DNA from: an uncultured Actinomycetes bacterium
Lineage (GTDB): Bacteria; Actinomycetota; Thermoleophilia; UBA2241
DNA length: 64,000 bases
Assembly (NCBI GenBank): GCA_963725665.1
Contig: CAVRZA010000004.1
Location: 576,001 to 640,000, forward strand
Reading direction: 5' to 3'
Both the position numbers and the translations under genes were made by a program. Below the pieces are notes generated by a model that was given only the letters and a program-made list of their open reading frames with translations, made no database searches and was not told the DNA's origin. Of the stretch, positions 1-60,366 are shown in pieces (position 1 is the stretch's first letter; every line of letters begins with the position of its first letter).

Positions 1-203
1 ACGACATTCACCACGATGATACGCCCCATACGTTGGCCACGTCGCCTCGACGGACCGGGATGAGCTGAACCGGTCAGCAGCTCTTTCCCTCCGCGGCGGG
101 AGTTGGTTGACTAGCGCTACCGACCACCGGCATGGAGCGTGCCCTGCGGCACGGACCGGAGGAACGCTCCACAGCATGTACGACCCGTGAGAAGGAGGCG
201 CGC

Positions 204-1670
204 GTGAAACGGAACCGCCACGCCGGGCGCAGGCGCAGCGGCGGCCTGGGCCTCGACGTCTTCACGCCCGAGGAGCTCGAGGACATCCACCTGAGCACAC
301 TGCAGGTCCTCGAGCACACGGGGGTGCTCGTCGACGACGACGAGGCGATGGACTACTTCGCGGCGGCCGGCTGCCACGTCGACCGCGACGAAAGGATCGT
401 CAAGATCTCGCCGCACGTGGTCGAGGAGGCGATCGCCTCGGCTCCGGCCAGCATCCTCCTCGCGGGGCGCGACCCGAAGAACGATGTCGTCCTCGAATCG
501 AACCGCGTCGGCTTCTGCACCTTCGGCGAGGGCATCATGATCGTCGATCCGTACAGCGGCGAGCTGCGGGAACCGCTCAAGAAGGACGTCGGCGACGCCG
601 CCAAGCTGGCCGACGCGCTGGACGATATCGACACGTTCGAGATCGCCATCGGCGCCAAGGACGCGCCTGGCGAGACGGCCTCTATCCACAACTTCGAGGC
701 TGCCCTCGCGAACACGACGAAGTGCATCGGCGCCGGCACGCTCTCGACGGAGGAGACGGAGGCCGTCATCGACATGGCCGCCGTGGTAGCCGGCGGGCGC
801 GAGAGCTTACGCGAGCGGCCGATCGTCTACTTGGGCGTCTGCCCGGTGAGCCCCCTCAAGCTCACCAAGGAGGTCTGCGAGGTCATCATCTCGGCCGCCA
901 AAGCCGGCCTGCCCGACAACATCCTCTCGATGGCGATGAGCGGCGGCTCGGCCCCGGCCAACCTCGCCGGCACGCTCGTCACGCACAACGCCGAGGTCTT
1001 GAGCGGCATCACTCTGGCGCAGCTTGTCCGCCGCGGCACGCCGGTGATCTACGGCAGCTCCACGACGGCCCTCGACCTGCGCTTCGCAACGGCCTCGGTC
1101 GGCTCACCGGAGTGCGCCATGGTCAACGCCGGCGTGGCCTGTCTCGCGCGTCAGTACCGGCTGCCGAGCTACGTTGCCGGTGCGTAGGGGGATGCGAAGC
1201 TCAGTGACGCCCAGACCGGTCACGAGAAGACACTGACCGGACTGCTACCGGCGTTGGCAGGCGCCAACCTCCTGTACGGTTCGGGGATGATCGAGTCGGG
1301 AGTCACCTTCGATTTCGGGCAGCTCGTTATGGACAACGAGTTCGCGCGCATGATCAAGTTCGTGGTCGGAGGCATCAGGGTCGACGACGAGACGCTGTCG
1401 GTCGACGTCATCGCGCAGGTAGGCGCCTTCGGGGACTTCCTGAGTCACGAGGACACCTACAAGAACATGCGCATCCAGTCGCAGAGCAAGCTGATCGACC
1501 GGCGCGTGCGCGAGGACTGGGAGCAGGCCGGCTCGACCGACCTCTACACGAGGGCCTGCGCCGAAGCGCGCCGGATCCTCGAGTCGCACGAGGTCGAGCG
1601 GCTCGCCGACGACGTCACCGCGGAGGTCCGCGAGATCGTCGCACGGGCCGACCGCGCGCTCACGGCGTAG
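204..1670 (+). CDS. mttB: Trimethylamine:corrinoid methyltransferase (MttB family), 488 aa if the in-frame TAG at 1185-1187 is read as pyrrolysine (residue 328)
   Basis: ORFs 132..1187 and 1254..1670 share a frame and join as SYVAGA-[TAG]-GDAKLSDAQTGHEKTLTGLLPALAGANLLYGSGM, matching the Pyl site of MttB. RBS AAGGAGG at 192-198 precedes GTG 204. Confidence 0.92.
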
Positions 1671-1808
1671 GAGGGAGAGCGTCAGCGGAGGGCAGAACGC
1701 CAGAAGGCCAAGGCGCTGACTGGGGCCCCATGGGCGTGAGCGGGGCGCAGCCCCAGGAGCTTGTGAGGCGGCGGGGCGGGTAAGCGCCGCGCTAGTCGAG
1801 GCTGAGGG

Positions 1809-2738
1809 CTAGTCGCCCGCCTCGACCAGCTTCACGAGGGCGCGCCGCGCGGCCGCGCGCACGTCGGAGACTTCGTCGTGCAAGACTCCGCGCAGCGCGC
1901 TCATGGCACTCCGGTCGCCGATCTCGCCCAAGGCAGCGGCAGCCTCACGGCGCACCAGTGCCTCGGCGCTGTCGAGGGCTTCGAGCAAGCCGGGCACGGC
2001 CGGTCGCCCCACCTGGATGAGTGCATAGGCCGCCCCCCGGCGCACCGTCTCGCGGCGCGAGGCGTCGAAGAGAAGGTCGAGCAGCGGGTCGACGGCTGCA
2101 TCGCCGATACGACCCAGGGCCCAGGCGGCGACCGAGACAGTCTGCTGGCCGCTGGCGAAGTCGCCTTGCAGAGCCTGATCGAGGGCGGCCACAAGGGGCG
2201 CGACCGACGCCTGGCCGATGTCGGCCAGCACCGCTGCCGCCACGAAGCCGACACCCGGGTCCCAGAGCGCGCCGGCGACGTGCCACGTCGCCGGCGCGCC
2301 GATCAGCTGGAGGAGCTGTGCCGCCCGGTCGCGCTGCCTGCCGTCGCTGAGGGCGCGCACCAGCGAGCGGCTGATCTGCTGCAGGGCGTCGAGGGCCAAT
2401 GGTGTCACGCTGGGGTTGGGGCCATGAAGCGCCTCGACAAGCGGCGACACCGCGGCGTCGCGGATGCGCACCAGAGCCGCGCAGGCGGCGACGCCGCCGC
2501 GGGGGAGACTGTCGACGAGCGGCTGCACGGCCTCTGGGCCGAGCGTGACGAGGGCGTCGACGGCGCGCCTGATCTCGGGCGTGGCGTCGATCATGGCCGT
2601 CAGCGGCCGCCGTTCGAGGAGCGCCACGAGCGCCCGCGCGTCGCCGAGACCGGCGGCGCCGTCTACCGCCGTGCCTACGCCGGCCGCGCCTTCGCGGGCC
2701 GCGCCCTCTCCGTCCGCTGCTGCCCGCCAGAGCTTCAC
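1809..2738 (-). CDS. HEAT/PBS-lyase-like repeat protein
   Basis: Repeated motifs such as VRREAAAALGEIGD, AAWALGRIGDAAVDPL and VRAAARRAL. Start placed at GTG 2738, 6 nt after a TATCAT -10 box. Confidence 0.8.
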   Translation of the reverse strand: MKLWRAAADGEGAAREGAAGVGTAVDGAAGLGDARALVALLERRPLTAMIDATPEIRRAVDALVTLGPEAVQPLVDSLPRGGVAACAALVRIRDAAVSPLVEALHGPNPSVTPLALDALQQISRSLVRALSDGRQRDRAAQLLQLIGAPATWHVAGALWDPGVGFVAAAVLADIGQASVAPLVAALDQALQGDFASGQQTVSVAAWALGRIGDAAVDPLLDLLFDASRRETVRRGAAYALIQVGRPAVPGLLEALDSAEALVRREAAAALGEIGDRSAMSALRGVLHDEVSDVRAAARRALVKLVEAGD

Positions 2739-3499: not shown

Positions 3500-3681
3500 G
3501 GCCGTCGCGCTGGTCGACGCATCGTCCCACGAGTGCTGCGCGTGACGGCGCATCCTTCAAGGTAGCCGCTTTGGACCCGTAGCCCTCTGTTGCGGCGGCG
3601 CTATAGTCTTGGCGCGAGGGACGCACGCCGAGTACTCTTGCCATCGCAGGGCCGCGAGTCTTGAAGCCGGGATAGGGGCGC

Positions 3682-4518
3682 ATGAGAGTGGAGCGTAGGG
3701 ACCACCGGAGGGGACGCCGTCGTCTCGCACCTGCTCTGCTGTTGTTCGCGCTTCTCTGCTTGCCCGCATCCGCATTCGCGGCCAGCCCCAGCGCCTCGCC
3801 AACGGCGGCTGGGGCCACATCGGTGACACCGACACCTTTCTCGACGCCCGTGGTTTCTGCCACGGTCATCCCGCCAGGGTCGGGAGCGGCAGTCTTCGCG
3901 CAGAACTGCTCCGGCTGCCACGGCACCCGCGGCGAAGGCAACTCGCGCGGCCCCTTCTACGGCCCGTCGCTGCAGGCCGCCGCCTTCCCCAGCCTCGTTG
4001 CTGAGATGGTCGAGCGTGGCAGGCAGGCGCCGACGCCCGCCCGCGTGCAGATGCCGGCCTTCGCCGGCGTGTTGAGCGGCGAGCAGATCGCTGCCGTGTC
4101 CGCATACGTGTCGGGGGTGCTCTCTGACCCCGCCGCGCGCAGCGCGCAGGCGGGCGAGGGGGGCGTGATCTTCCGCCTGTACTGTTCGGGCTGTCACAGC
4201 GCGGCGGGTCGGGGCGGCGCCATCGTGAACGGCGTCAACGCGCCAAACCTGCGGTTGCATCCTGCCGCGACGGCTCTTGCCGCCGTGATCATCGGGCCGG
4301 GCAACATGCCGGTCTTCGCGGGCAACACCCTCGATACCCGCCAGCAGGCCGCCGCCGCCCGCTACGTCGAGGCCCTCCTGACGACCCCTTCGCCGGGCGG
4401 GCGCGATCTAGGGTTCATCGGTCCCGTCGCGGAGGGCTTCGCGGCGGCGATCGCCCTTGCGGCGCTGGTCGCTTTCACAGTGTGGCTCGAGTGGGGCAAG
4501 GGCAGGGCCCGTGACTGA
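3682..4518 (+). CDS. qcrC: Diheme cytochrome c subunit of cytochrome bcc
   Basis: Two CSGCH heme motifs, MPAF and MPVF Met ligands, signal peptide and C-terminal TM; overlaps the Rieske gene. Confidence 0.88.
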   Translation: MRVERRDHRRGRRRLAPALLLFALLCLPASAFAASPSASPTAAGATSVTPTPFSTPVVSATVIPPGSGAAVFAQNCSGCHGTRGEGNSRGPFYGPSLQAAAFPSLVAEMVERGRQAPTPARVQMPAFAGVLSGEQIAAVSAYVSGVLSDPAARSAQAGEGGVIFRLYCSGCHSAAGRGGAIVNGVNAPNLRLHPAATALAAVIIGPGNMPVFAGNTLDTRQQAAAARYVEALLTTPSPGGRDLGFIGPVAEGFAAAIALAALVAFTVWLEWGKGRARD

Positions 4519-5425
4519 GCTGGAGGAGCGCGTGACCGAGGCCGCGGAGTCGGCGTTCGCCGGGGCGGGACCGCCGGCCGGCGAGCCGCAGCGCCCGCGG
4601 CCCGCGTGGCCGTCGGCGCTGGCGCTTCTCGCCGCCATGGCCGGCGGCGTCGGTTTCGCCTGGTCGTACGTCGTCGACGCCGGCAACGCCTGGCTCGGGG
4701 GCTTCCTTGCCCTGGGCCTCCTCGGCCTCGGCTTCGCGCTCGCCTACTGGGGGCGCGACCTCGCCGGCGACGATGAAGCCTTGGGGCGCTACCCGATCCC
4801 CTACGAGGATGCCGAGGCTCAAGTCGCCTTAGCGGCGGACGTGCAACGCGATGCGGAGGTGGTGACGCGCCGCGGCTTCCTCACCAAGCTTCTCATCGGC
4901 GGCGCGGCCGTCTTCGGTCTGAGCCAGCTCGCGCTCGTCGCCTCGCTGGGTCCGCGTCCGAGGAGCAGCTTCTACGAGGGCGCGTGGCGAGCCGGCTCCC
5001 GCCTGGTCACCTTCGACGGCCGCCCCGTGACCCGTGGCGCGCTGGCCGGCGGCGGTTTCCTCGTGGCGTTCCCGGAGGGCCACACCGACTCGGCGAACTC
5101 GCAAGTGGTGCTGCTGCGCCTGCCGACGGATCGCTTCACGCCACAGCCCGGGCGCGAGAGCTGGAGCCCCGAGGGGTTCGTCGCCTACTCGCGCGTCTGC
5201 ACGCACGCGGGCTGCGCCGTCGCGCAGTACGAGGACGAGGCTCAGGTCCTTCTCTGCCCGTGCCATCAATCGACCTTCGATGTGCTGAACGGGGCCAGGC
5301 CGATCGGCGGACCGGCGGCGCGGGCGCTGCCCCAGCTGCCCCTGGCGATCGATCCCGCCGGCGACCTCGTCGCCCAGGGTGACTTCACCGAGCCCGTCGG
5401 CCCCAAGTCCTGGACGATCCTGTGA
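4511..5425 (+). CDS. qcrA: Rieske Fe-S subunit, actinobacterial 3-TM type with internal twin-arginine motif
   Basis: CTHAGC and CPCHQS boxes; two N-terminal TMs, then TRRGFL before TM3. Confidence 0.92.
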   Translation: MTELEERVTEAAESAFAGAGPPAGEPQRPRPAWPSALALLAAMAGGVGFAWSYVVDAGNAWLGGFLALGLLGLGFALAYWGRDLAGDDEALGRYPIPYEDAEAQVALAADVQRDAEVVTRRGFLTKLLIGGAAVFGLSQLALVASLGPRPRSSFYEGAWRAGSRLVTFDGRPVTRGALAGGGFLVAFPEGHTDSANSQVVLLRLPTDRFTPQPGRESWSPEGFVAYSRVCTHAGCAVAQYEDEAQVLLCPCHQSTFDVLNGARPIGGPAARALPQLPLAIDPAGDLVAQGDFTEPVGPKSWTIL

Positions 5426-6792
5426 GTGAGCGGACGATCATCAAAGGGCTGGCCAAGGCCTTCAACGTGTCGCAGGCAAGGACGCGCGGCGCGGCGCGCT
5501 GGGTCGGCAGGAACGTCGGCGGTAGTAGCGTGCTGCGCGAGGAGCTGCGTCACATCTTCCCCGACCACTGGTCGTTCTTCTTCGGCGAGATCGCGCTCTA
5601 CTGCTTCATCATCCTGATCGTCACGGGCGTCTTCATGGCGCTGTTCTTCAGCGCCTCGGCGGCTGAGGTCGTCTACAACGGGAGCTACGAGCCGCTCAAG
5701 GGCGTCGTCATGTCCGACGCCTACCGATCGACGGTCAACCTGAGCCTCGACGTGAGGGCCGGTCTCCTTGTGCGGCAGGTCCACCACTGGGCCGCCCTGG
5801 TGTTCGCCGCGGCACTCGGTCTGCACCTCTTCCGCATGTTCTTCACCGGCGCCTATCGCAGACCGCGCATGATCAACTGGATGGTCGGCCTCATCCTGTT
5901 CTTGCTCGTCGTCCTGAACGGCATCTTCGGCTACTCGCTGCCCGACGACCTGCTCAGCGGCACCGGCCTGCGAATCGCCTACTCGATCACGGAGTCGATA
6001 CCGCTGGTCGGTCCCTGGCTGGCCTCTCTCATGTTCGGCGGCGCGTTCCCCAGCCAGGCTCTGATACCGCGCATCTACCCGGTGCACATCTTCCTGGTGC
6101 CGGGGGCGATCGGCGCGCTGCTGGGGGTCCACCTGGGAGTGCTCTGGCTGCAGCGTCACACGCAGTTCTCCGGCCCCGGCCGCGACGAGCGAACGGTGGT
6201 GGGGACTCCGCTCATACCCGCCTACGCGTTGCGCACCGTCGGCTTCTCGCTGATCGTCGCCGGCGCGCTGGCCGTGCTCGGCGGCTTCTTCCAGATCAAC
6301 CCGGTGTGGGTGTACGGCCCCTACAAGCCTTGGGACGCAACCACGCTGGCTCAGCCCGACTGGTACACGGGCTGGCTCGAGGGGTCCGTGCGTCTCTTCC
6401 CGTCGTGGGACATCGTCATCGGCGGCTTCAGGCTGCCGGGCCTGTTCTGGCCGGCCGTCGTCCTGCCCGGCCTCGTTCTCACTCCGCTTCTCGTCTGGCC
6501 GCTGGTTGAGCGCGTCGCCACGGGCGACAGCCGCTACCACAACCTCATCGACACGCCCTGTGTCCACCCGGGACGCAGCGCCATCGCCGCCGGCACCATG
6601 ACCTTCCTCTTCACGCTGTTGTTCGCCGGCGGCGACGACGTCTGGTCGGTGCTCTTCGGCTGGCCGATCGAGTCCCTGGTGCTGGGGTTCCGCATCGCCG
6701 TGATCGTCCTGCCGCCGATCGTCGCCTTGCTCACCTACTTCACCTGCCAGGCGGCTTCGGCCGCGCGTCGGACTTCGCTCGCCGGGCGCTGA
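5422..6792 (+). CDS. qcrB: Cytochrome b subunit of cytochrome bcc
   Basis: FPDHWSFFFGEIALY, RQVHHWAA, GYSLPDDLLSG and QPDWY motifs. Confidence 0.95.
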   Translation: MSERTIIKGLAKAFNVSQARTRGAARWVGRNVGGSSVLREELRHIFPDHWSFFFGEIALYCFIILIVTGVFMALFFSASAAEVVYNGSYEPLKGVVMSDAYRSTVNLSLDVRAGLLVRQVHHWAALVFAAALGLHLFRMFFTGAYRRPRMINWMVGLILFLLVVLNGIFGYSLPDDLLSGTGLRIAYSITESIPLVGPWLASLMFGGAFPSQALIPRIYPVHIFLVPGAIGALLGVHLGVLWLQRHTQFSGPGRDERTVVGTPLIPAYALRTVGFSLIVAGALAVLGGFFQINPVWVYGPYKPWDATTLAQPDWYTGWLEGSVRLFPSWDIVIGGFRLPGLFWPAVVLPGLVLTPLLVWPLVERVATGDSRYHNLIDTPCVHPGRSAIAAGTMTFLFTLLFAGGDDVWSVLFGWPIESLVLGFRIAVIVLPPIVALLTYFTCQAASAARRTSLAGR

Positions 6793-6845
6793 AGGCGCGC
6801 CGGCAGGCGGGCGGCGGCCGCCCGCCGCCGGCGCGCCTTCAGCGC
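6786..6845. terminator. Long GC inverted repeat between convergent qcrB and the heme o synthase gene (probable bidirectional terminator)
   Basis: GCGCTGAAGGCGCGCCGGC (6786-6804) pairs with 6827-6845, with an inner stem; the arms include both stop codons. Confidence 0.7.
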
Positions 6846-7678
6846 AGCCTGTCGACGACCAGCGCGACGATGATCGCCGCCAGGTAGGGTCCCGAGAACT
6901 TGAAGAAGACCCAGGCGCTGCGCGCCGTCCGGCGCCGGTAGAGCCGGATCGTCAGCACCCAGAGGAGCGCGCCCGCGGCCAGGGCGACGAGCGGGTAGAC
7001 GAGACCCGAGAGGCCCCACGCCAGTGGTGCCGCGGTCAGCGCGGTGAGCACGGCGACGAGCAGGAGGATCTGCCGGCAGGTCGTCCCCTCGCCGTAGGCG
7101 ACCGACGGCGTCGGGATACCCGACGAGGCGTAGTCGTCCTTGAGGGCCAACGAGAGTGCCCAGAAGTGCGGCGGCGACCACACGACGATCAGGGCACAGA
7201 CGAAGACGATGTCGTGCGACCAGCCTCCGCCTGCCGCCGTCCAGCCGATCAGAGCGGGAAAGATGCCGGCGATGCCGCCCGGCAGGGCGCTGAGCGGCGT
7301 GCGCGGCTTGAGAAGGAGCGTGTAGACGACCACGTAGTAGACGGCGCCGCAGAGCGCGCAGACGGCCGCGGGCGTCCCGGCGATGAGAAGCAGCCCGAGG
7401 ACGCCCGCGGCCATCGCGCTCAGGCTCACGGCGAGCGCCCGGCGAGGCGACACGGCGCCGGCCGCTATCGGCCGGCGCCGTGTCCGCTCCATGCGCCGGT
7501 CGAGGTCGCGCTCGAGGTAGTTGTTGAGCATCGCCGCGCCGGCGACCGTGAGCCCGGCGGCGGCGACCACGGCCACCAGGAGCGGCGCGCTCGGCGGCCC
7601 CGCGAGCAGCATCGCCGCAACGACGGTGAGCAGGAAGAGGGCGACGACGCGCGGCTGCGCGGCTTTGATGTAGTCCAT
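6839..7678 (-). CDS. ctaB: Protoheme IX farnesyltransferase (heme o synthase, CtaB/CyoE)
   Basis: NNYLERDLDRRMERTRRRP and WSPPHFWAL motifs; ATG 7678 lies 6 nt after CACAAT. Confidence 0.93.
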   Translation of the reverse strand: MDYIKAAQPRVVALFLLTVVAAMLLAGPPSAPLLVAVVAAAGLTVAGAAMLNNYLERDLDRRMERTRRRPIAAGAVSPRRALAVSLSAMAAGVLGLLLIAGTPAAVCALCGAVYYVVVYTLLLKPRTPLSALPGGIAGIFPALIGWTAAGGGWSHDIVFVCALIVVWSPPHFWALSLALKDDYASSGIPTPSVAYGEGTTCRQILLLVAVLTALTAAPLAWGLSGLVYPLVALAAGALLWVLTIRLYRRRTARSAWVFFKFSGPYLAAIIVALVVDRLR

Positions 7679-7927
7679 GACGCTATTGTGCCGCATGGCG
7701 CGGCGCGGCGCGCGGGTGGCGCGCGGCGGGCGCGTGTGGTCGCGCGAAACGCCGCCCACGTTGCGATTGCGCCGAGTTCGTGGATACACTCGCCTTGGGA
7801 GCGGCGCCGCCGCCGCCCCGCCACGGGCCGGCGGGGGAGGCGACGACGCCGCGGTCACGAAGGGAGCCGGAGTGGTCAGTGAGGTCCCCGCGGCCGGGCC
7901 AGGCGCCGAGACGGGGGTGTGCAGGGC

Positions 7928-8923
7928 GTGAGCAGACGCGCGCCTTTGCTCGCCGCCCTCATCCTGTTCCTCGTCCTGCTCTTGGCGGGATGCGCCAAGG
8001 ACTCCCCGACGATCCTTCGCCCTGGCTCTCCCGGCGGCACCGACATCAAGACGCTCACCATCCAGATACTGGCCATCTTGAGCGGCGTCGCCATCACCGT
8101 CTGGGTCATCCTGACGATCGTCATCATCCGCTACCGCAGGCGGCCAGAGTCGCAGGTCCGCCAGACGCGCGGCAACCTGACGATCGAGATCGTCTGGACG
8201 GCGATCCCTGCCGTCATCGTCGCCGTGCTCTTCTTCCTCACCATCCGCACGACCGGGGAGCTCGCCATCCCCGCCAGCACCCAGGTCCACTTCGCCGCGA
8301 CCGGCCACCAGTGGTGGTGGGAGTTCGAGTTCGCCGGCGGGACCTTCAAGACGGCCAACGAGATACACCTTCCGGTGGAGCAGACTGTGTCGGCCGACCT
8401 GCTCTCGACCGACGTCATCCACAGCTACTGGGTGCCGCAGCTGGGTGGCAAGGTCGACATGATACCTGGCCACATTAACCGCATCGCCTTCATCCCTGCC
8501 CAGACCGGCAGGTTCTTGGGGGAGTGCTCCGAGTACTGCGGCCATCAGCACGCCCACATGCGCTTCCTCGTGTTCGTCGTTTCATCGGCCGAGTTCGCGA
8601 CGTGGTTCGCGAACCAGCAGCTCCCGGCCCGCGCGCCGACGGGCGCACAGGCGATAGCCGGCAGTCAGTTCATCGCCACCATCGCCTGTGGCGGCTGCCA
8701 CGCCATCAGGGGGACCAGCCTGGCCGGCGTGAAGGGCCCGGATCTGACGCACTTCGGCAGCCGCACGAGCATCGCCGCCGTGACCCTGCCCAACACGCCC
8801 CAGAACCTCTCCCGCTGGATCGCCGATCCGCAGGCGGTGAAGCCCGAGACGCTCATGCCGCTCATCGCCATGCCGCCTGATCGCCTTGCGCAGGTCGTCG
8901 CCTACCTCGAGGAGCTGAAGTGA
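7928..8923 (+). CDS. ctaC: Cytochrome c oxidase subunit II lipoprotein with C-terminal cytochrome c domain (caa3-like)
   Basis: LLAGC lipobox, GHQWWWEF, CuA ligands DVIHSYW and CSEYCGHQHAHM, C-terminal CGGCH and TLMP. Confidence 0.93.
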   Translation: MSRRAPLLAALILFLVLLLAGCAKDSPTILRPGSPGGTDIKTLTIQILAILSGVAITVWVILTIVIIRYRRRPESQVRQTRGNLTIEIVWTAIPAVIVAVLFFLTIRTTGELAIPASTQVHFAATGHQWWWEFEFAGGTFKTANEIHLPVEQTVSADLLSTDVIHSYWVPQLGGKVDMIPGHINRIAFIPAQTGRFLGECSEYCGHQHAHMRFLVFVVSSAEFATWFANQQLPARAPTGAQAIAGSQFIATIACGGCHAIRGTSLAGVKGPDLTHFGSRTSIAAVTLPNTPQNLSRWIADPQAVKPETLMPLIAMPPDRLAQVVAYLEELK

Positions 8924-11358
8924 GCGCCCAGGCGGCCGTGCCGCTCAGCGCCTACGAGCCGGCCCAGCGGGCGAGCCTTCGCGATTGGCTCACCACGACC
9001 AACCACAAGCGGATCGGCATCCTCTACATCGCCACGGCGCTGATCTATTTCCTGGTCGCGGTGACCTTTGCGATGCTGATGCGCACGCAGCTCATCAGAC
9101 CCAACAACGACTTCCTCACGCCCGAGCAGTACAACCAGATCTTCTCCATGCACGGCACCACCATGATCTTCCTCTTCGGCATGCCGATCCTCATCGGCTT
9201 CGCCAACTACCTCGTGCCGCTGATGATCGGCGCCCGTGACATGGCTTTCCCGCGTCTCAACATGCTCAGCTACTGGCTGTTCCTGTTCGGCGGGATCCTG
9301 ATGTACAGCAGCTTTCTCTTCGGCGGCGCGCTCGACACCGGCTGGTTCAGCTACGCGCCGCTCACCGAGAAGGCGTACTCGCCCCACGACGGGGTGACGT
9401 TCTGGATCGTGTCTCTGGCCGTCCTCGGCGTCTCCTCCCTCGTGGGGGCCGTCAACTTCATCGTGACCATGCTGAGACTGCGCGCGCCGGGCATGACCTG
9501 GCTGCGCATGCCGCTCTTCGCTCAGGCGACCTACATCAACTCGTTCCTGATCTTGTTCGCCATCCCCAGCCTGTCGGCCGCCACGGCGCTCCTGTACCTC
9601 GACCGCCTGCACGGCACGACGTGGTTCAACGCCGCCACCGGCGGCGACCCCATCATCTGGCAGCACCTCTTCTGGTTCTTCGGTCACCCCGAGGTCTACA
9701 TCCTTATACTGCCGGCCTTCGGCATGATGAGTGAGGTGGTGCCGATCTTCTCGCGCAAGGTGCTGTTCGGCCGCACGACGATGATCATCATGCTGGCGGC
9801 CATCGGGTTCCTCGGCTTCATCGTGTGGGCGCACCACATGTTCGCCACGGGTCTGCCCACTTACTTCAACACCATCATGGCGGGAACCAGCATGCTGATC
9901 GCCATCCCGACCGGGGTGAAGATCTTCAACTGGTTGGCGACCATGTGGGGCGGTTCTTTGCGCTTCAAGACGCCACTGCTGTTCGCCTGCGGCCTGATCG
10001 CCCTCTTCACCATCGGCGGCATCACCGGCGTGATGCAGGCCGTAGTGCCGTTCGACTGGCAGGTGACCGACACGTTCTTCATCGTCGGCCACCTGCACAA
10101 CGTGCTCTTCGCGGGTACGATCTTCGGCGTCTTCGCCGGCTTCTACTACTGGTTCCCCAAGATCACCGGCCGGCTGCTCGACGACCGTCTCGGCAAATGG
10201 CACTTCTGGATCATGGTCGTGGGGTTCAGCCTGACGTTCCTGCCGATGTACGCGCTTGGTCTCATGGGCATGCCTCGGCGGGTCTACACCTACGCATCCA
10301 ACCTGGGCTGGAACGACCTCAACCTGGTCTCGTCGATCGGTGGCTACATCCTCGCCGTGTCGATTACCGTCTTCGTGGTCAACGTTGTGCGCAGCCTGCG
10401 ATCAGGCGAGGTGGCCGGCGACAACCCGTGGGACGCGTGGACGCTGGAGTGGGCCACCACGTCTCCGCCGCCGCCCGACAACTTCACCTCGCTACCGCCG
10501 ATCCACAGCGCGAGACCGCTCTGGGATCTCAAGCACCCCGAGGATCCTGATGAGCCCAGCTCCCACGATGCGGCGGTGGCGGTGGCACCTGAGGCGGGGG
10601 GAGACAGCGGAGGAGCCGACGGCTTTTTGGCCGAGTCCGGGCACTCGACACTCGTGCCTCTCTTCACCGGCGTGGCCATCCTCGTGATGGCGATCGGGCT
10701 GCTCACCTCGCTCCTTGTGTCTCTTGCCGGCATCCTGATGCTCTTCGTTGTGGCTGCCCAGTGGCTCTCATCGCCCTTCCCGCCTCCCGATGCGCCGGAC
10801 GAGCCCGGCGCTCGCTTCACGATCGCCGGCTTGGGCATGCTGGTCTTCCTCGGATCGGAGGTAGTCTTTTTCGGCTCGCTCATCGCCGCCGCCGTTCACC
10901 TGCGTATCCACACCAGCACGCTCGGCCCGTTCGGCCTGGGCCTCACTCTGCCCATCGTCAACACGGTCGTTCTCATCAGCAGCGGCATCGCCGCCCATTA
11001 CGCCCTCGTCAGCCTGCGGAAGGGCCGTAGCGGGTGGTTCGCCTTCCTGGTCGTTCTGACGATCGCGCTTGGAGCCACCTTCCTGGCCGGCCAGGCCTGG
11101 GAGTACACGCATGTCGGCTTCGGTCTCTCGAGCGGCGTGGAGGGATCGACCTTCTTCACCCTGACCGGGTTCCACGGCGCCCACGTCACCGCCGGCATCC
11201 TGGTGCTGCTGTACGTGTTCGTGCGCATCAGAAGGCAGAGGAGACTCGCTGCCGCGACGGGCGACGGCGGCACGGGCATCATGGAGGCCGGCACCTACTA
11301 CTGGCATTTCGTCGACGCCGTGTGGGTGGCCGTCTTCGTCGTCGTCTACCTGCTCTGA
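8920..11358 (+). CDS. ctaD: Heme-copper oxidase subunit I fused to subunit III (A1 type), 812 aa
   Basis: SMHGTTMIF, WFFGHPEVY, WAHHM, GHLHNV and GMPRR, followed in the same frame by subunit III motifs FLGSEVVFF, LTGFHGAHV and YWHFVDAVW. Confidence 0.93.
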   Translation: MSAQAAVPLSAYEPAQRASLRDWLTTTNHKRIGILYIATALIYFLVAVTFAMLMRTQLIRPNNDFLTPEQYNQIFSMHGTTMIFLFGMPILIGFANYLVPLMIGARDMAFPRLNMLSYWLFLFGGILMYSSFLFGGALDTGWFSYAPLTEKAYSPHDGVTFWIVSLAVLGVSSLVGAVNFIVTMLRLRAPGMTWLRMPLFAQATYINSFLILFAIPSLSAATALLYLDRLHGTTWFNAATGGDPIIWQHLFWFFGHPEVYILILPAFGMMSEVVPIFSRKVLFGRTTMIIMLAAIGFLGFIVWAHHMFATGLPTYFNTIMAGTSMLIAIPTGVKIFNWLATMWGGSLRFKTPLLFACGLIALFTIGGITGVMQAVVPFDWQVTDTFFIVGHLHNVLFAGTIFGVFAGFYYWFPKITGRLLDDRLGKWHFWIMVVGFSLTFLPMYALGLMGMPRRVYTYASNLGWNDLNLVSSIGGYILAVSITVFVVNVVRSLRSGEVAGDNPWDAWTLEWATTSPPPPDNFTSLPPIHSARPLWDLKHPEDPDEPSSHDAAVAVAPEAGGDSGGADGFLAESGHSTLVPLFTGVAILVMAIGLLTSLLVSLAGILMLFVVAAQWLSSPFPPPDAPDEPGARFTIAGLGMLVFLGSEVVFFGSLIAAAVHLRIHTSTLGPFGLGLTLPIVNTVVLISSGIAAHYALVSLRKGRSGWFAFLVVLTIALGATFLAGQAWEYTHVGFGLSSGVEGSTFFTLTGFHGAHVTAGILVLLYVFVRIRRQRRLAAATGDGGTGIMEAGTYYWHFVDAVWVAVFVVVYLL

Positions 11359-13889: not shown

Positions 13890-14630
13890 CTACTCCCAGC
13901 GGAAGACGCGCAGCGACACCACCCCCGCGGCGGCGCCGTACAGGGCCGTGATCAAGAGCTGCTGCCAGTCCATGGCACCCGTGTTCCAGGGCTCCTGCAA
14001 CGCCTGGACGAGGTGGTACAGAGGTAGAACCTGGCCGACGCGCAGGAGCCAGGTGGGGAGGAGCTCGAGGGGACTGGCAGTGCCGGAGAGGAACATCATG
14101 GTGAACCAGAGGAGGAGCCCGGCGCCCTGCACGGCGCGCGCGCTCGGCAGCAGGCCGGCGAGCAGGATGCCGATGGCGGCGAACGTGGCCACGCCGACGA
14201 CGGCGGTGAGGAGTACGCGCACGACGGAGTCGGGCTGGTTGGCGTCGTAGACCAAGGCTCCCAGCAGGTAGACGAGGAGGCCGCCGACGACGGCGATGAG
14301 GACCGCCACGACCGTCTGCGAGCCGAAGTACGTGAGCTCCTTGAGCCCCGAAGCTCGCAAACGGCGGAGCACTCCGCGTTCGCGGTAGGTAGCCAGGTGT
14401 ACAGGTAGCGAGATCATGCCGATGGACGCGATCACCAGACCGATGTAACCCGGCACGTAGTAGTCCATCGCGAGGACGTCCCCGAAGTTCCCTCCAGTCA
14501 CCCGGTCATTGCGGAAGATCCCGCCCAGGACGAGCAGCACGAGCAGGGGGAAGGCGAACGTGAAGATCATCGTCACCGGCTCGCGAACGAGCAGCTTGAT
14601 CTCGGTCCAGGTGAGCTTCCAGAGGGCCAT
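13890..14630 (-). CDS. ABC-2 type exporter permease
   Basis: Six TMs; RERGVLRRLRAS and YYVPG motifs. Confidence 0.88.
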   Translation of the reverse strand: MALWKLTWTEIKLLVREPVTMIFTFAFPLLVLLVLGGIFRNDRVTGGNFGDVLAMDYYVPGYIGLVIASIGMISLPVHLATYRERGVLRRLRASGLKELTYFGSQTVVAVLIAVVGGLLVYLLGALVYDANQPDSVVRVLLTAVVGVATFAAIGILLAGLLPSARAVQGAGLLLWFTMMFLSGTASPLELLPTWLLRVGQVLPLYHLVQALQEPWNTGAMDWQQLLITALYGAAAGVVSLRVFRWE

Positions 14631-14636
14631 CGTCCG

Positions 14637-15608
14637 CTACTCCCGCAACGCGTGGCCGGTGAGCGCGAGGAAGACGTCCTCGAGCGAGGGTTGCTCGAGG
14701 CGCAGGTCGGCCGGCGCGATGCCGTGGTCGACGAGCTCGGCCGCGACGAGGGCCAGCACCGGTCCCGTGCCCCGCACGAGCACGCAGGTGCCCTCGTGGA
14801 CGAGCTCGTCGACGCAGGGGACGTCGCAGAGCCAGGAGAGGTCGGGCTCGTCGGTGGTGAAGGTCACGCGCACGCCGCCGGCGTAGCTCTCGACGAGGCC
14901 CCGCGGCGTGTCGCTGGCGACGATACGCCCGCCGTCCATGACGGCGATACGGTCGCAGAGGCGCTCGGCCTCCTCCATGAAGTGGGTGACGAGGACCACC
15001 GTGCTGCCGCGCTCGCGGATCTCACGGACGAGGTCCCAGGCGACGCGGCGCGCGGCGGGGTCGAGCCCGGTCGTCATCTCGTCGAGGAAGACGACCTCAG
15101 GGTGGTTGACGAGCGCCAGCGCGACGAAGAGACGCTGGCGCTGGCCGCCCGAGAGGCTGTGGAACGAGGCCTTGGCCTTGTCGGCGAGACCCCACCGCTC
15201 GAGGAGAAGACGCCAGTCGGAGTGGCCGGGGACGAACGACGAGAAGAGGTCGAGCGCCTCCCAGACGCGCATGTGGTCGGGGAGCGAGGACTGTTGAAGT
15301 TGGCAGCCGATGCGCGGACGGAGCTGCGCCGTCTGGTGCTGCGGGTCGAGACCGAGAACCCGCAGGCTGCCGCCGTCGCAGTGCCGCAGCCCCTGCAGGC
15401 ACTCGACGGTCGTCGTCTTGCCGGCGCCGTTGGGCCCGAGGAGGCCGAAGATCTCGCCGCGCAGGACCTCGAAGGTGGCCTCCTGCACCGCGACGACGTC
15501 GTGGTAGCGCTTCGTCAGGCCGTGCACGTCGATGACGATCTCGCGCCGATCGGCGTCACGCTGGTCCGCCTCGGGGCGTGCGGGTTCAGGGATGTCGGTG
15601 GCCATCAC
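14637..15608 (-). CDS. ABC exporter ATP-binding protein (DrrA-like)
   Basis: GPNGAGKTT, LSGGQ, VFLDE, VTH and C-terminal PSLEDVFL. Confidence 0.93.
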   Translation of the reverse strand: MMATDIPEPARPEADQRDADRREIVIDVHGLTKRYHDVVAVQEATFEVLRGEIFGLLGPNGAGKTTTVECLQGLRHCDGGSLRVLGLDPQHQTAQLRPRIGCQLQQSSLPDHMRVWEALDLFSSFVPGHSDWRLLLERWGLADKAKASFHSLSGGQRQRLFVALALVNHPEVVFLDEMTTGLDPAARRVAWDLVREIRERGSTVVLVTHFMEEAERLCDRIAVMDGGRIVASDTPRGLVESYAGGVRVTFTTDEPDLSWLCDVPCVDELVHEGTCVLVRGTGPVLALVAAELVDHGIAPADLRLEQPSLEDVFLALTGHALRE

Positions 15609-15712
15609 GAGACGTGGAGGAGTGTGGTCGAAGCTCGTACCATGCTACACCTTGGACGGTCGCAACACGGCGTCCCATCGCCGCGTGCCCGGGCTTGAGT
15701 CGCAGGCTCCTT

Positions 15713-18795: not shown

Positions 18796-19983
18796 TCACC
18801 CTTTCCAGCGCAGGATCGCAGCCACCCCATCGAGATCGGCCAGCGGGGCCGCGGCGTCTTGCTCGACCGGCGTGACGGTCGCTCCCCTCGCCAGCGCCTG
18901 CTCGATCATGCGCTCGGCCAGGAAAGGTTCGGGCACCAGCTCACCCGAGGGGACGTCGCCGGGGTGTGTGCCCTCGGGCCACAGCCGGCCGTCGGGCTCT
19001 ATGAGGCCGCTCCACTCGCGCGAGCCGTCGAGGAGCAGCGTGTGCACACGCCCCTCGAAGAGCGCCGCGAGAACGTCGGTCAGGCCGAGCGCGCCCGCGC
19101 CGCCTGCCAGGGCGGCGTCGCGGGCGCGCTCGACGAGCCGCCCCTCGCGGCGCCGCGTCGCGGCGCGCATCTCGTCCACCACCGCCTGGCTCAGCGCGTG
19201 CCTGTCGAGGTCCTCGAGCAGGCGTTCGCTCGACACGAGCTCGCGGCGCCCGTCCTTGGGGAGCGCCTGGGCGAAGGCTTCGGTCATGCGGGGGTCGCCG
19301 GCCAGGAGCAGCCTCTCCCAGGAGCGGCCCGTGGCGATGCCGTCGAGCGCATGCGCGACCGGTACGAAGAAGCGCCGCCTCGCCTCGTCGAGGCGGCGTT
19401 CGAACCGGTCGCGCTCGAGCGCGATCTGCTGTCCCGGACTGGGCGACCGCGACGGCTTGGCCTTCGCCTCGCGCCACTCCTCGGTCTCGGGCTCGAACCT
19501 CCAGCGCGCCAGCTCGTCGGCCACGCCGATCTTCCACTCGCAGAGGCGGACGCCGGAGCGCGAGACCATGATGATGCCGGCGGGGCGTGCCTCATCGAGC
19601 ACGGCAAGCAGCGGCCGCACGTAAGCGGTGCGCTCGAACACGACGCGGTTCGGCAGCGGCAGTTGCACGGCGAGGCGCTCTACGACGCCGTCGCTGACGG
19701 CGGCGTAGAGCGCCCTACCGCGACCGCTCTCCTTGGGATCGAGCAGCCGCTCGAAGTCGGGCGCGAGCGCCTCGAGACGGGCGAAGAGCGCGCGCCACGT
19801 CTCGTGCGGCTCTTCGCTCTTGACGCGCTCGCGCAGCGCCTCGAGCTCGTTCTTGATCACGACTTCCCACGCCGGCCGCTCGCTGGTCCGCTCACTCGGG
19901 TCGGCGTCGACGTAGACGCTCAAGACGCCGTAGGGATCGCGGATGCGCATGACTGACACCAGCGTCTGTTGGTTCACGTCCAC
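18796..19983 (-). CDS. Bacterial aeRF1-type release-factor homologue (baeRF family)
   Basis: N-terminal VLSVYVDADP, GRGRALY, central LLLAGD, C-terminal GRVHTLLL...GVAAILRW as in eRF1/pelota domain 3; no GGQ. Confidence 0.78.
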   Translation of the reverse strand: MDVNQQTLVSVMRIRDPYGVLSVYVDADPSERTSERPAWEVVIKNELEALRERVKSEEPHETWRALFARLEALAPDFERLLDPKESGRGRALYAAVSDGVVERLAVQLPLPNRVVFERTAYVRPLLAVLDEARPAGIIMVSRSGVRLCEWKIGVADELARWRFEPETEEWREAKAKPSRSPSPGQQIALERDRFERRLDEARRRFFVPVAHALDGIATGRSWERLLLAGDPRMTEAFAQALPKDGRRELVSSERLLEDLDRHALSQAVVDEMRAATRRREGRLVERARDAALAGGAGALGLTDVLAALFEGRVHTLLLDGSREWSGLIEPDGRLWPEGTHPGDVPSGELVPEPFLAERMIEQALARGATVTPVEQDAAAPLADLDGVAAILRWKG

Positions 19984-20153
19984 CGGAGGCGCCTCCTTTG
20001 CGGGTCATCCCGGGGCATACGGCCGCACAGTGATGCTACCCCGTGGCGGCCGTTACCGAGCATCGCCGTCAGGGTATGAGCAGACGGAGAAAGGCGCCTC
20101 TCTCGCCGCATGAGAGTCTCCGCATATCCCCCGACCACCCGGAGGCAACGATA

Positions 20154-29122: not shown

Positions 29123-30546
29123 ACGAGACGGGGAAGGACGGCCCAACCGGGGAGGCCCGGCGTCAGGACGCAAGCGGCTCGCCGACGCCGGGGCTGACGC
29201 GTGGGCAGGAGCTCTTCGCTGACGCCGCGCGGCACCTTGTGGGGGGCGTCGGCTCGGGCACACGCTCGCCGCGCTCCGGCTGGCAGCCGTACCCGATCTT
29301 CGTCGAGTCGGCGCGCGGCGCCCACGTGATCGACGTAGACGGCAACGAGTACATCGACTACGCCATGGGGCTTGGGCCGCTGATCCTCGGTCACCGGCCG
29401 CGGGCCGTCATCGAGGCGGTCACGCGCGTGATCAACGAACGCGGCTCCATGTTTGCTCTCGCCCACGACCTCGAGGGCCGCGCGGCGGCCGTCGTCGCTG
29501 AGCGCGTGCCTTCGATGGAGCTCGTGCGCTTCGGCAACTCCGGCACCGAGTGCTGCCACTACGCCATCCGCTTCGCGCGCGCCTTCACCGGACGCCAGCT
29601 CGTGGTGCGCTTCGAGGGTCACTACCACGGCTGGTCCGACGTCATCCATTGGTCGGCCCACCCCGCCCTCGCGAAGGCCGGGCCGGAGGCGGCGCCGGCC
29701 GTCGTGCCGGAGACGACGGGCATGACGGCCGGCGCCGCCTCCGGCCTGCTCGTCCTCGGCTGGAACGACCCCGAAGCACTTGAGCAAGTCTTCGCGGAGC
29801 GCGGCGACGAGATCGCCGCCGTGATCACCGAACCCATCGACGGCAACAGCGGCGCCATCATGCCCGAACCCAGCTACCTCGAGACGATGCGTCGGCTCAC
29901 CGAGCGACATGGCGCCCTGCTCATCTTCGATGAGGTGCTGACCGGCCTTCGTGTGCACCCCGCCGGCGCGCAGGGCCTCTTCGGGATGAGCCCCGACCTC
30001 ACCGTGCTGGCGAAGGCGCTCGGCGGCGGCTTCCCCGTGGCCGCCTTCGGCGGTCGCCGCGACGTGATGGAGATGGCGGCCGACGGGCGCACGATGCACG
30101 GCGGTACCTACAACTCGAGCCCGCTGGTCTGTGCCGCCGTGCTTGCCACGATGGCCGAGACGGGCAAGGCGGGCTTCTACGAGCGCCTCGGTGAGCTCGG
30201 CTCGCGTCTGCGCAACGGTCTGCTTGCCGCCGCCCACGATGCTGGCCTCGGGGCCTGCTGGAGCGGCCCGCCGCAGATGGGGCAGCTGTGGTTCGCGACG
30301 CGTCCGCCGCGTACCTACCGCGAGGCGATGAAGGTCGCCGCGGTGAGCCCCTACTTCACGCTCTACCGTGAGCTGCGCGAGCGCGGCGTCATCATCCAGC
30401 CGCCGCAGGAGGGCCTGCTCTTCGTGTCGGGTGGTCACACCGACGCCGACATCGAGCGCACGGTCGAGATCGCCTGGGAGGTGATGCCGCTCGTGGCGCG
30501 GGCCGCGGCCGAAGGTCGGGTCGGCCCGCGCGGCGGCGTGCGCTGA
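29119..30546 (+). CDS. Class III PLP aminotransferase (GSA-aminomutase-like)
   Basis: DVDGNEYIDY, NSGTE, YHG, IFDEVLTG, AKALGGGFP and GGTYN. Confidence 0.9.
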   Translation: MNETGKDGPTGEARRQDASGSPTPGLTRGQELFADAARHLVGGVGSGTRSPRSGWQPYPIFVESARGAHVIDVDGNEYIDYAMGLGPLILGHRPRAVIEAVTRVINERGSMFALAHDLEGRAAAVVAERVPSMELVRFGNSGTECCHYAIRFARAFTGRQLVVRFEGHYHGWSDVIHWSAHPALAKAGPEAAPAVVPETTGMTAGAASGLLVLGWNDPEALEQVFAERGDEIAAVITEPIDGNSGAIMPEPSYLETMRRLTERHGALLIFDEVLTGLRVHPAGAQGLFGMSPDLTVLAKALGGGFPVAAFGGRRDVMEMAADGRTMHGGTYNSSPLVCAAVLATMAETGKAGFYERLGELGSRLRNGLLAAAHDAGLGACWSGPPQMGQLWFATRPPRTYREAMKVAAVSPYFTLYRELRERGVIIQPPQEGLLFVSGGHTDADIERTVEIAWEVMPLVARAAAEGRVGPRGGVR

Positions 30547-34444: not shown

Positions 34445-34689
34445 CCGTTCTCCTCGCGTCTCGCCGCCGGGCACGCGACGGCCGGTCGTGGCCGTCGAGT
34501 ACGTCGTGAAGTCTTCCCCGAGGACGGGCCTCCGTCAATCTTAGGAGGGCCGCTGTTGCGGTCGGGTGCGTCCGGGGCGGCGTGCCGATTTCGGGGCGCC
34601 GGGTCGGCCCTGCGCAGCGGCGTGCCGATCCGGCGCCCTCTTTGTCGGGGCGCAGCGGCAAGGTAGCATCGCCGCGACAGGGAGGGAGT

Positions 34690-36312
34690 GTGCCCGGCAA
34701 GGTCATCGTCTGCTTGTGTCACGACGTCACCGAGGACGACGTGCGCCGCGCCGTCGCCGAGGGCTACGACGATATCGAGACCGTCAAGCGCTTCACGGGC
34801 GCCATGATGGGCCCCTGCCAGGGCAAGACGTGCGCGTGCGCCCTGCGGGACCTGGTGGCGCGACTCACGGGGCGCGGCGCTGAGGAACAGGCGCTGCCGG
34901 CGCGGCGGCCGCCGGCCTACGCCGCCCGTCTCGGGGCTTTGAGCGGCGGCATCGACGAGGAGACGTCGACGGCGGCCGCCGCGCAGGGCAGCGCCGGACC
35001 TGAGGCGCCGCGCTCGGAGGTGTCGCGTTCGGGTGTGCCACGCCCGACCGCAGCGCGTCCGGTCGCCAGAGCGGCCCATCGCCGAGAGCTTCCTCGGCAC
35101 GGCGTCCCCGGCACGACGACGAGCGAGCTGCGCAAGGCCTACGACGTCGTGGTGATCGGCGCCGGCATCCAGGGGCTCGCCCTGGCCTACGAGCTCGCGA
35201 AGCTCGGCGCCGGGCGCATCGCCGTGCTCGAGCGCGGCTACCCGGGATGCGGCGCCAGCGGCCGCAACGGCGAGATGATCCGTTCGGCCTTCGCCTCTCC
35301 CGAGTGGATCCGCTTCTTCGACGAGAGCCTGCGCCGCTGGCAGACCCTCTCCGCGGAGCTCGAGTTCAACGTCCTCTTCACGCCGGCGGGCTACCTCGTC
35401 CTGGCCTCGACGCCAGAGCTGGCGGAGGCCCAGCGCCGCTACGTCCACCGCCAGCACGAGCTCGGTCTGCACACGGAGATACTCAGTGCGGCACAGGTGC
35501 GCGACCTTTGCCCCGCGCTGAACCCCGACCTGGTCGCCGGCGGCATCCTGCAGCGCGACGGCGGCTTCGCGCACCACGACGCCTGCGTGTGGGGCTACGC
35601 GCAAGCGGCCGCCCGCCGGGGCGTCGAGATCCACCCCTACACCACGGTGACCGGCGTGTACGTCGCCGCCGGCAGAGTCCGCGGCGTGAGCGCGCTGAAG
35701 GCGTCGGCGGCGAGGGACAGCGCCGTCACGGTGGCCACCCCCCTCGTCGTCGACGCCGCCGGGGGGCACGCGGCCGACGTCGCGGCCATGGCGGGTGTCG
35801 AGGTCCCCGTGAAGACGTTCCGCCTGGAGATGATGGCGACGGAGTCGCTGGCGCCCTTCTTGAGGCCTGCCGTCAGCGCCCCCGCGATCATGGGCTACTG
35901 CCACCAGACGACGCGCGGGGAGTTCGTCGGCGGCACCGAGCCCGGCGGCACCGAGCCCTCGACCAGCCTGCGATCGACCGTCTCTGCGGTGCGTCACGCG
36001 GCCGACCGCTTCGCGCGCCTCCTACCGGCGCTGGCCGGCGCGCGCATGCTGCGCCAGTGGACCGGACTCGTCACCGAGACTGCCGACGTTGCCCCCGTGC
36101 TCGGACCGGTGCCCGAGGTCCAGGGGTTCATCCTCGACTGCGGCTGGGTGTACGGCTTCATGGGCGCTCCGGGCGCCGCCGCGCTGCTCGCCGAACACAT
36201 CGCGACCGGGGTGATGCCGGAGGTGCTGGCGCCGTTCGGGGTCGAGCGTCTGCGTGCGGGTCGTCTCATCCCCGAGACGTCGCTGGTCGTGAGCGCGGAG
36301 GCGCGGGGATGA
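34690..36312 (+). CDS. BFD-like [2Fe-2S] domain fused to a sarcosine-oxidase-beta/proline-dehydrogenase-like FAD oxidoreductase
   Basis: CLCHDV...GPCQGKTC, then VVIGAGIQG, GASGRNG and RQWTG. Confidence 0.85.
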   Translation: MPGKVIVCLCHDVTEDDVRRAVAEGYDDIETVKRFTGAMMGPCQGKTCACALRDLVARLTGRGAEEQALPARRPPAYAARLGALSGGIDEETSTAAAAQGSAGPEAPRSEVSRSGVPRPTAARPVARAAHRRELPRHGVPGTTTSELRKAYDVVVIGAGIQGLALAYELAKLGAGRIAVLERGYPGCGASGRNGEMIRSAFASPEWIRFFDESLRRWQTLSAELEFNVLFTPAGYLVLASTPELAEAQRRYVHRQHELGLHTEILSAAQVRDLCPALNPDLVAGGILQRDGGFAHHDACVWGYAQAAARRGVEIHPYTTVTGVYVAAGRVRGVSALKASAARDSAVTVATPLVVDAAGGHAADVAAMAGVEVPVKTFRLEMMATESLAPFLRPAVSAPAIMGYCHQTTRGEFVGGTEPGGTEPSTSLRSTVSAVRHAADRFARLLPALAGARMLRQWTGLVTETADVAPVLGPVPEVQGFILDCGWVYGFMGAPGAAALLAEHIATGVMPEVLAPFGVERLRAGRLIPETSLVVSAEARG

Positions 36313-38031: not shown

Positions 38032-38407
38032 TCCGGGATTGCGTCTGACTACAGACCCAAGCGGGCGATCCGTTCACTGAGGCGCGGCACGATCGAGCCG
38101 CAAAAGGGCTGCCGCCTGCTCGAGGCTGACGGCGCCGCGTTGCAGCAACGCCAGGTGCTCAGGCGGGTCTGCCGACGAGGAGGTCGGCCGCGGGGGTGCT
38201 CCGTCGGAGTGCCCCCACGCGGCCGGCCGCATCCTCCCCTGGGGAGAGGGCTCTCCTGTCCTTTGCCCCGCGCGATCGAGGACACACCCCCCGAATCTCC
38301 TCCTCCGGAGAAGACCAAGATGCCCCACCGGGGCGACGACTCCCGCGGCGCCTGCCACTAGCCTGTGAGACAGACGGTAAGTGAATCGCGGAGCGACGGA
38401 GGGAGTC

Positions 38408-38587
38408 ATGTTCAACCTCACGACAATGGACACCAAGACGGACTGGCGCGGTGGCCCGCGCACCAGCCGCAGGGGTCGTCGGGGCGCCCGCCGCATCGAC
38501 TACAACGCACTTGCGGCCGTCGAGTACCGCCGCGCCCTACGCTCTGCGCTCGCAGCGCACGCTGAGACCCGCTTGCGCGTGTTCTGA
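38408..38587 (+). CDS. Small hypothetical basic protein, 59 aa
   Basis: GGAGGGAG RBS before ATG 38408; GC3-rich codons. Confidence 0.5.
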   Translation: MFNLTTMDTKTDWRGGPRTSRRGRRGARRIDYNALAAVEYRRALRSALAAHAETRLRVF

Positions 38588-38901
38588 ATCTCAACGCCCC
38601 TTCTCTCGGTAGCGAGCGGGCGCCGGGAGGCCAGAATGGCCTCCCGGCGCCGGCCGACTTTGTGCGGATGTGCCACCAAGTCGCGCGCGAAATCACGCAC
38701 GATTGTGCAAGAATGTGCGTGGTTCGTGACATCTGCGTTCGGGCGGCCCGTGGGGGCTCCCGTCGGCGCCAAAGGCGGTCGCCGCGAGGCGGCCGGCGGA
38801 TCACAACCACTCAGCGACGTTCCTGTCGCGCTCACTTAAGGCGTCCACGCCGGCCGCTTCACGCTACCCGGCGCCAATCGACCAGTGGAGGGTTGCAGTC
38901 T

Positions 38902-40203: not shown

Positions 40204-40222
40204 GCAGATGTGAACGGGGTGG

Positions 40223-40252
40223 GGGAGCGAGGCCGGGACAGGCCTCGCTCCC
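40223..40252 (+). terminator. 12-bp GC hairpin after the dehydrogenase gene
   Basis: GGGAGCGAGGCC-gggaca-GGCCTCGCTCCC. Confidence 0.55.
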
Positions 40253-40329
40253 ACGCCCAGGTGAAGGGAGTCGGTCCGGCGCGTCCACGCGCCGGGTGTC
40301 GAGCCGGTGAGAACCGGCTGTGAAGGAAG

Positions 40330-41909: not shown

Positions 41910-41927
41910 TCGACAGCGAGTCAGGCG

Positions 41928-42802: not shown

Positions 42803-42803
42803 C

Positions 42804-60360: not shown

Positions 60361-60366
60361 TGCGGC

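Follow-up and report, generated by a model that had tools for sequence, protein, structure and literature searches.

Judged by its sequence, the reading frame at positions 204 to 1670 of the window (the whole stretch of DNA analysed, 64,000 nucleotides long) is a genuine pyrrolysine (Pyl)-type mttB gene, and its product is predicted to demethylate trimethylamine. It is probably an intact Pyl-dependent MttB gene of a Thermoleophilia-like actinobacterium, in which UAG codon 328 would be read by a tRNA-Pyl encoded elsewhere in the genome. The results below establish the identity of the gene, the position and conservation of its TAG, the conservation of the part downstream of it and the taxon.

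The earlier note on this DNA had described one TAG interrupting an otherwise continuous MttB frame, and translation of the 488 codons confirmed it at the same coordinates, codon 328 being the sole internal stop of the frame (Table 1). Positions 1182-1199 read gcg TAG ggg gat gcg aag, and the peptide LPSYVAGA-O-GDAK, as the note had read it, matches the translation. Codon usage is normal on both sides of the TAG, again as had been claimed, with a GC3 of 0.91 upstream and 0.90 downstream in the same frame, and no further stop or frameshift occurs in the 160 codons past it. The GTG start is backed by the Shine-Dalgarno-like motif upstream as well as by the N-termini of homologues. A promoter and terminator scan of window positions 1-2000 gave nothing useful.

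Table 1. Features of the window, with positions counted from its first letter.
Feature	Position	Strand	Remarks
mttB, Pyl-type trimethylamine:corrinoid methyltransferase	204..1670	+	488 codons, GTG start
Shine-Dalgarno-like GAAGGAGG	191..198	+	5 bases 5' of the start codon; direct reading
In-frame TAG, codon 328	1185..1187	+	Putative Pyl readout; on Pyl334 (X) of 7xcl
mttB C-terminal 160 codons, 3' of TAG	1188..1667	+	Holds Tyr358 and Gly366; GC3 0.90
Terminal stop, again TAG	1668..1670	+	Direct reading and translation
Possible 22-codon extension to TGA 1737-1739	1671..1739	+	Conjectural; would need read-through of the terminal TAG
Match to Rfam RF02510 PYLIS_3 ("pyrrolysine insertion sequence mttB")	1185..1284	+	67 bits, gathering threshold 38
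Aerobic respiratory block	3676-11355		Dihaem cytochrome c (QcrC-like), Rieske (QcrA-like), cytochrome b (QcrB-like), UbiA/CtaB-like, COX2, COX1-COX3
ABC ATPase and ABC-2 permease, two genes in one frame	13893-15644	-	Separated by TAG 14637-14639 and three codons

Every feature of a Pyl-type MttB that can be tested at the level of sequence was found in the gene. The translation scored 708.5 bits against TIGR02369, the NCBIfam equivalog model of Pyl-type MttB (cut-off 525), with residues 16-483 placed end to end on profile positions 2-469 of 469, and 307.8 bits (1.1e-91) against Pfam MTTB (PF06253). The best solved structure was the MttB of Methanosarcina barkeri, matched over residues 2-486 by 7xcm (E 7e-120) and 7xcl (E 4e-119). 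In this alignment, which the earlier note had proposed, the match is full-length and the pyrrolysine X (Pyl334) of 7xcl falls exactly on the window TAG. Gly110, Met249, Tyr364 and Gly372 of M. barkeri correspond to Gly108, Met243, Tyr358 and Gly366 of the window protein, while Thr111 is replaced by Glu109. In the excerpted description of the M. barkeri enzyme (PMC9842639), Pyl is the catalytic group, Gly110 and Tyr364 are fully conserved in Pyl-type MttB, Met249 and Gly372 are active-site or corrinoid contacts, and the contacts given for Thr111 are of its backbone only.

The likeness to M. barkeri MttB (7XCL, 7XCM, 7XCN; PMC9842639) consists of the full-length match at an E-value of about 1e-119, the UAG on the Pyl334 column and the four residues kept. 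In contrast to that system, the window host is bacterial, with 70% GC and genes of an aerobic respiratory chain on the contig of mttB, and its gene has Glu for Thr111 and no adjacent mttC on the visible side; coenzyme M is an unlikely methyl acceptor downstream. The same TIM-barrel family also holds the non-Pyl MttB superfamily, for example glycine betaine methyltransferase (2qne, 9yce; E 4e-69), for which the excerpts of PMC8604678 give quaternary amine substrates. Non-Pyl members such as MtgB, MtcB and the like carry a sense codon at the Pyl column, whereas the window gene has TAG there and passes the Pyl-type equivalog model. The assignment of the gene to the Pyl type, made in the earlier note from the letters of the sequence, is borne out by this model, by the TAG on the 7xcl Pyl column and by the TAG of all 80 related loci described below.

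Relatives were taken as the best 120 database matches to the window MttB, of which 75 were short and 45 longer. All 75 short relatives (323-329 aa, 61-94% identity) finish at the position that aligns with residue 327 of the window protein, and they are gene calls cut at the same stop. That gene callers would split such genes had been predicted, and these 75 proteins, each ending right before the TAG column, are cases of it. The 45 longer relatives among the best 120 matches are all at most 58% identical to the window MttB, and their Pyl column is occupied by a sense residue in 44 (L 15, W 12, A 6, S 5, others 6) and by a gap in one. It had also been considered that the closest homologues might be non-Pyl proteins with a sense codon here; the comparison gave the opposite, since the relatives at 61-94% identity stop at 327 and those with sense codons reach 58% at most.

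A scan of species-representative genomes (genome_contigs) yielded 80 related loci with identities to the window MttB of up to 67%. In every one of them the best match carries TAG at the Pyl column, and the 80 loci hold 96 TAG-type genes in total, while the more distant paralogues in these loci (at most 51% identity) have sense codons there. The TAG is more than a chance interruption: it lies on the X of 7xcl, all 75 short relatives end at 327, and TAG recurs in every one of the 80 loci. A sequencing or assembly error that hides a true sense codon is a practically negligible explanation given the same TAG column in all 80 loci and all 75 short proteins. Nothing specific speaks for such an error beyond the frameshifts seen in some related PylSc entries of public assemblies.

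The part 3' of the TAG is no less conserved than the part 5' of it, as far as aligned identities indicate. Mean identity to the window was 0.644 after and 0.614 before the TAG in actinobacterial genes (n=43), and 0.610 after and 0.543 before in the other genes (n=45), with 9 of the 96 locus genes omitted from the comparison as too short or of odd length. The region that begins with the TAG also matches the Rfam family PYLIS_3 (Table 1). Its score comes mainly from sequence, because three of the eight model pairs are non-standard in the window, and the model matches every TAG-type mttB in seven test loci (nine genes). The match probably reflects the coding sequence around the TAG and does not prove an RNA element.

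The GC content of the window is about 70% throughout. In a database search, the fused COX1-COX3 protein of the respiratory block had its best matches at 89-81% identity, and those with an organism name (up to 81% identity) came from Thermoleophilia in nine cases and Actinobacteria in one, with none from any other group. The actinobacterial host supposed in the earlier note is thereby upheld, and the named COX1-COX3 matches place it in the class Thermoleophilia. Among the 80 related loci, 40 come from MAGs of Thermoleophilia, Actinomycetes or Actinomycetota, as labelled by their submitters.

The MttB tree comprised 104 rows, namely 87 TAG-type genes, 11 sense-codon relatives and six N-terminal fragments; ten of 97 TAG-type genes (window counted) were dropped for length, and the tree was built by a quick search without bootstraps. 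In it the window MttB falls into a clade of 47 rows (SH-aLRT 100), which contains only Actinomycetota-labelled loci and fragments without an organism label. Inside this clade, the window and four fragments at 75-94% identity to it (P0002, P0004, P0008 and P0028) form a third subclade of their own. Three operons from Thermoleophilia/Actinomycetota (L011, L012, L026) belong to the same TAG-type clade (SH-aLRT 100) and share 60-66% identity, a high GC content and the TAG column with the window gene, which differs from them by its third subclade, by the lack of mtbB and mttC on its visible side and by its TAG end instead of TGA. The Pyl clusters of Desulfobacterota (L074, and also L036 of the Olavius Delta 1 symbiont, PMC1976440) carry TAG-type MttB at 55-61% identity to the window. 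In these clusters, the pyl genes and tRNA-Pyl adjoin the methyltransferase genes, unlike in the actinobacterial loci and the window.

One locus labelled Deltaproteobacteria (L015) has 69% GC, the actinobacterial motif and the MttB closest to the window of all loci (67%); it is probably a mis-binned actinobacterial contig. A further set of full-length MttB relatives (P0009-P0090) shows 44-58% identity and Leu, Trp, Ala or Ser at the Pyl column. Some of these nest among TAG-type genes in the quick tree, and a group named Actinomycetes/Thermoleophilia makes up a clade apart, a pattern which suggests that replacement of Pyl by a sense codon may have happened repeatedly.

The Pyl-type mttB lies about 2-10 kb from genes of a bc complex and a haem-copper oxidase on the same contig. 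The UbiA/CtaB-like prenyltransferase gene of this block is on the opposite strand to the rest, COX2 has a C-terminal cytochrome c domain, and the fused COX1-COX3 measures about 812 residues, the fusion being common to all Thermoleophilia matches listed. Of the window neighbours compared with the related loci for synteny (HEAT-repeat gene, DUF6328, qcrCAB, ctaB and COX genes), only CopD was recovered, in two loci (L026 and L018). An amine/C1-related cluster was found at 34510-49592 and 62503-63999 (-). It includes a sarcosine-oxidase-like FAD protein with BFD and SO_alpha_A3 domains, a saccharopine dehydrogenase, a GltD-like protein and an NAD-linked formate-dehydrogenase-like set (2Fe-2S thioredoxin-like, Nuo51-like and molybdopterin subunits), with a glycine dehydrogenase subunit at the window end. 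The cluster is a possible candidate sink for methyl-group oxidation.

The 64 kb window contains no tRNA genes at all. PylS, PylB, PylC and PylD were not found in it by Pfam or by searches with the L074 proteins, tblastn with the MttC of L074 and L011 gave no match to MttC, no B12-binding domain was detected by Pfam, and no MtbB or MtbA-like gene was found in the window. The earlier note had called the gene detached from its usual partners, which stands in so far as the window holds no pyl, tRNA-Pyl or corrinoid gene; it needs a caveat because mttB begins 203 bases from the window edge, and the upstream side is visible only that far.

For comparison, a Desulfosarcinaceae cluster (L074) has the order mttB(TAG)-mttC-tRNA-Pyl-pylSc-pylB-pylC-pylD-pylSn, each protein scoring above its NCBIfam cut-off. 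Among the 80 loci, queries with the L074 proteins found pyl genes in non-actinobacterial loci only, and ARAGORN found tRNA-Pyl in eight, all of them non-actinobacterial; no pyl gene or tRNA-Pyl lies within 10 kb in any of the 40 actinobacterial loci. Two of the tRNA-Pyl genes (L074 12242-12315 and L010 10020-10093) were detected by ARAGORN and not by the Rfam tRNA model at its gathering threshold, so that Rfam-based tRNA screens would miss such genes.

Actinobacterial loci typically have the order tetR-mtbB-mttB-mttC. In 33 of the 40, the dimethylamine methyltransferase gene mtbB, itself of TAG type, is found no more than 10 kb from mttB; both halves of mtbB were recovered in 55 loci, and the junction codon at its Pyl position is TAG in 54 of these. 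Examples of the operon tetR-mtbB(TAG)-mttB(TAG)-mttC from Thermoleophilia are L011 8579-12137, L012 8502-12766 and L026 8454-13813; the second of these has two corrinoid protein genes, and the third an extra non-Pyl MttB-family paralogue directly 3' of mttC.

The synthetase is also present in the class. A profile of six PylSc sequences retrieved 303 representatives, some of them high-GC, and one high-GC PylSc (P0131) led to at least 120 clusters at 63-78% identity, in a clade which holds "pyrrolysine--tRNA(Pyl) ligase large subunit" entries from Thermoleophilia and Actinobacteria MAGs. PylSc and COX1-COX3 clusters were each reported on contigs of equal size (1,137,818 and 506,942 bases), as were clusters of MttB N-terminal fragments and COX1-COX3 (1,242,590 and 1,978,625 bases), which suggests that the oxidase shares a chromosome with the synthetase in some cases and with the TAG gene in others. 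The link between PylSc and TAG-type mttB stands at the level of the class and not on one contig. Together, the TAG-type mtbB, the PylSc clade and the equal-size contigs point to the Thermoleophilia relatives of the window as Pyl users. Four of the high-GC PylSc sequences (P0150, P0156, P0165 and P0200) turn partway into unrelated Arg/Pro/Ala-rich stretches and look like frameshifted gene calls in public assemblies.

UAG328 might also be read through with a canonical amino acid, by a near-cognate or suppressor tRNA, instead of pyrrolysine. MttB-family relatives at 44-58% identity with L, W, A or S at the column, and the lack of pyl genes in the window, would fit such a readout, but the codons at the column in those relatives are sense codons, all 80 loci retain the TAG, which is accompanied by a TAG-type mtbB, and PylSc occurs in the class. 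Pyl is moreover the catalytic group of the enzyme in the excerpted account of M. barkeri MttB (PMC9842639), and we regard canonical readout as very improbable.

A small but real share of probability goes to the gene being an inactive relic, left by a lineage that once used Pyl, in which a detached paralogue is no longer read through and yields a product of 327 residues, if any. The missing mttC, mtbB and pyl genes of the 64 kb, the unusual terminal TAG and the separate subclade, for which the species-representative genomes gave no member, are what a relic might look like. Against it stand the 160 codons past the TAG with neither stop nor frameshift at a GC3 of 0.90, a C-terminal part as conserved as the N-terminal part with the catalytic Tyr358 and Gly366 kept, and the four subclade fellows (75-94% identity), whose stop has not moved.

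For the intact Pyl-dependent gene, we infer how this genome would decode Pyl, which partners MttB would have and where the methyl group would go. A tRNA-Pyl(CUA), from a gene elsewhere in the genome, would receive pyrrolysine, the product of PylBCD, from a split PylSc/PylSn synthetase. The charged tRNA would compete with release factor at UAG328, giving the full enzyme of 488 residues, in which the pyrroline ring of Pyl328, aided by Tyr358 and the carbonyl of Gly108, would bind and activate trimethylamine. The methyl group would then pass to the Co(I) corrinoid of an MttC, likewise encoded elsewhere, and from there onward, probably to tetrahydrofolate.

TAG is also an ordinary stop codon in this genome, being used by 11 of 39 Pfam-backed window ORFs (28%) next to TGA in 26 and TAA in two. 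The stops of 46 actinobacterial TAG-type mttB genes were TGA in 42, TAA in two and TAG in one, with one gene running off its contig end. The window mttB, unlike the 42 with TGA, ends in TAG, and read-through there would add 22 residues (Table 1). No signal of backup stops after TAG-ended genes or of TAG avoidance was found in the window (median 50 versus 43 codons, p 0.87), and the backup-stop difference in the actinobacterial loci ran in the opposite direction and was confounded by the Pyl codons themselves. With TAG a common stop and no enrichment of backup stops, any Pyl decoding would therefore have to be ambiguous or regulated. Both kinds of decoding are known in other Pyl users, including a regulated bacterial case. 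These counts raise the question of how a tRNA that reads UAG is tolerated when TAG terminates 28% of the checked genes. A second in-frame TAG at 14637-14639 (-) was considered as a recoding site and rejected; it ends an ABC ATPase gene, and the ATG of an ABC-2 permease gene in the same frame follows three codons later.

As a natural expansion of the genetic code, pyrrolysine decoding is rare. According to PMC11764691 and PMC9630628, PylRS occurs in 81 bacterial genomes, of which two are Actinobacteria, and the hosts of Pyl are described there as anaerobes. The supplement of Guo et al. 2022 (PMC9630628) lists one PylSc of a "Thermoleophilia bacterium" and one of an "Actinobacteria bacterium", and the survey count and supplement list of that paper are the sole printed trace of Pyl in Thermoleophilia that was found in the material covered. 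A literature search found no paper describing Pyl methyltransferase genes of Thermoleophilia or Actinomycetota or their aerobic context. The rarity attributed to such a gene in the earlier note was nevertheless overstated in view of the 40 actinobacterial MAGs among the 80 loci, the at least 120 PylSc clusters and the Thermoleophilia PylSc of Guo et al. 2022. Public data already contain many genes like the window mttB, which reveals no new mechanism.

Three points are of modest interest: how widely the trait occurs in Thermoleophilia, where TAG-type mttB and mtbB are common in MAGs according to the related loci, the contig shared with an aerobic chain, and the detached, TAG-terminated paralogue. 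We tentatively propose, at somewhat less than even confidence, that soil and wetland Thermoleophilia with a bc complex and a caa3-type oxidase may decode UAG as Pyl and demethylate tri- and dimethylamine for an aerobic or facultative metabolism, with the window mttB as a third paralogue lineage. If so, the 22nd amino acid would leave the strictly anaerobic niches assigned to it by reviews, with a bearing on methylamine cycling in soils and wetlands. For annotation, such genes sit as two fragments in most databases.

Further observations in the window concern release-factor-like proteins and split frames. An ORF at 18799-20004 (-) has domains of bacterial archaeo-eukaryotic release factors (baeRF_family10, 5e-25, and also families 5, 2 and 3), and such a release-factor-like protein is noteworthy where UAG recoding is suspected. 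At 59922-60476 (-) lies the gene of a small protein with an RF-1 domain (1.6e-23), a putative ArfB-like peptidyl-tRNA hydrolase. In-frame high-GC3 stretches are separated by TGA at 30544-30546 (+), where an aminotransferase III is followed by a 236-codon ORF without a family, and at 62500-62502 (-), where a GcvP subunit is followed by a 232-codon ORF without a family; both pairs are likely adjacent genes.
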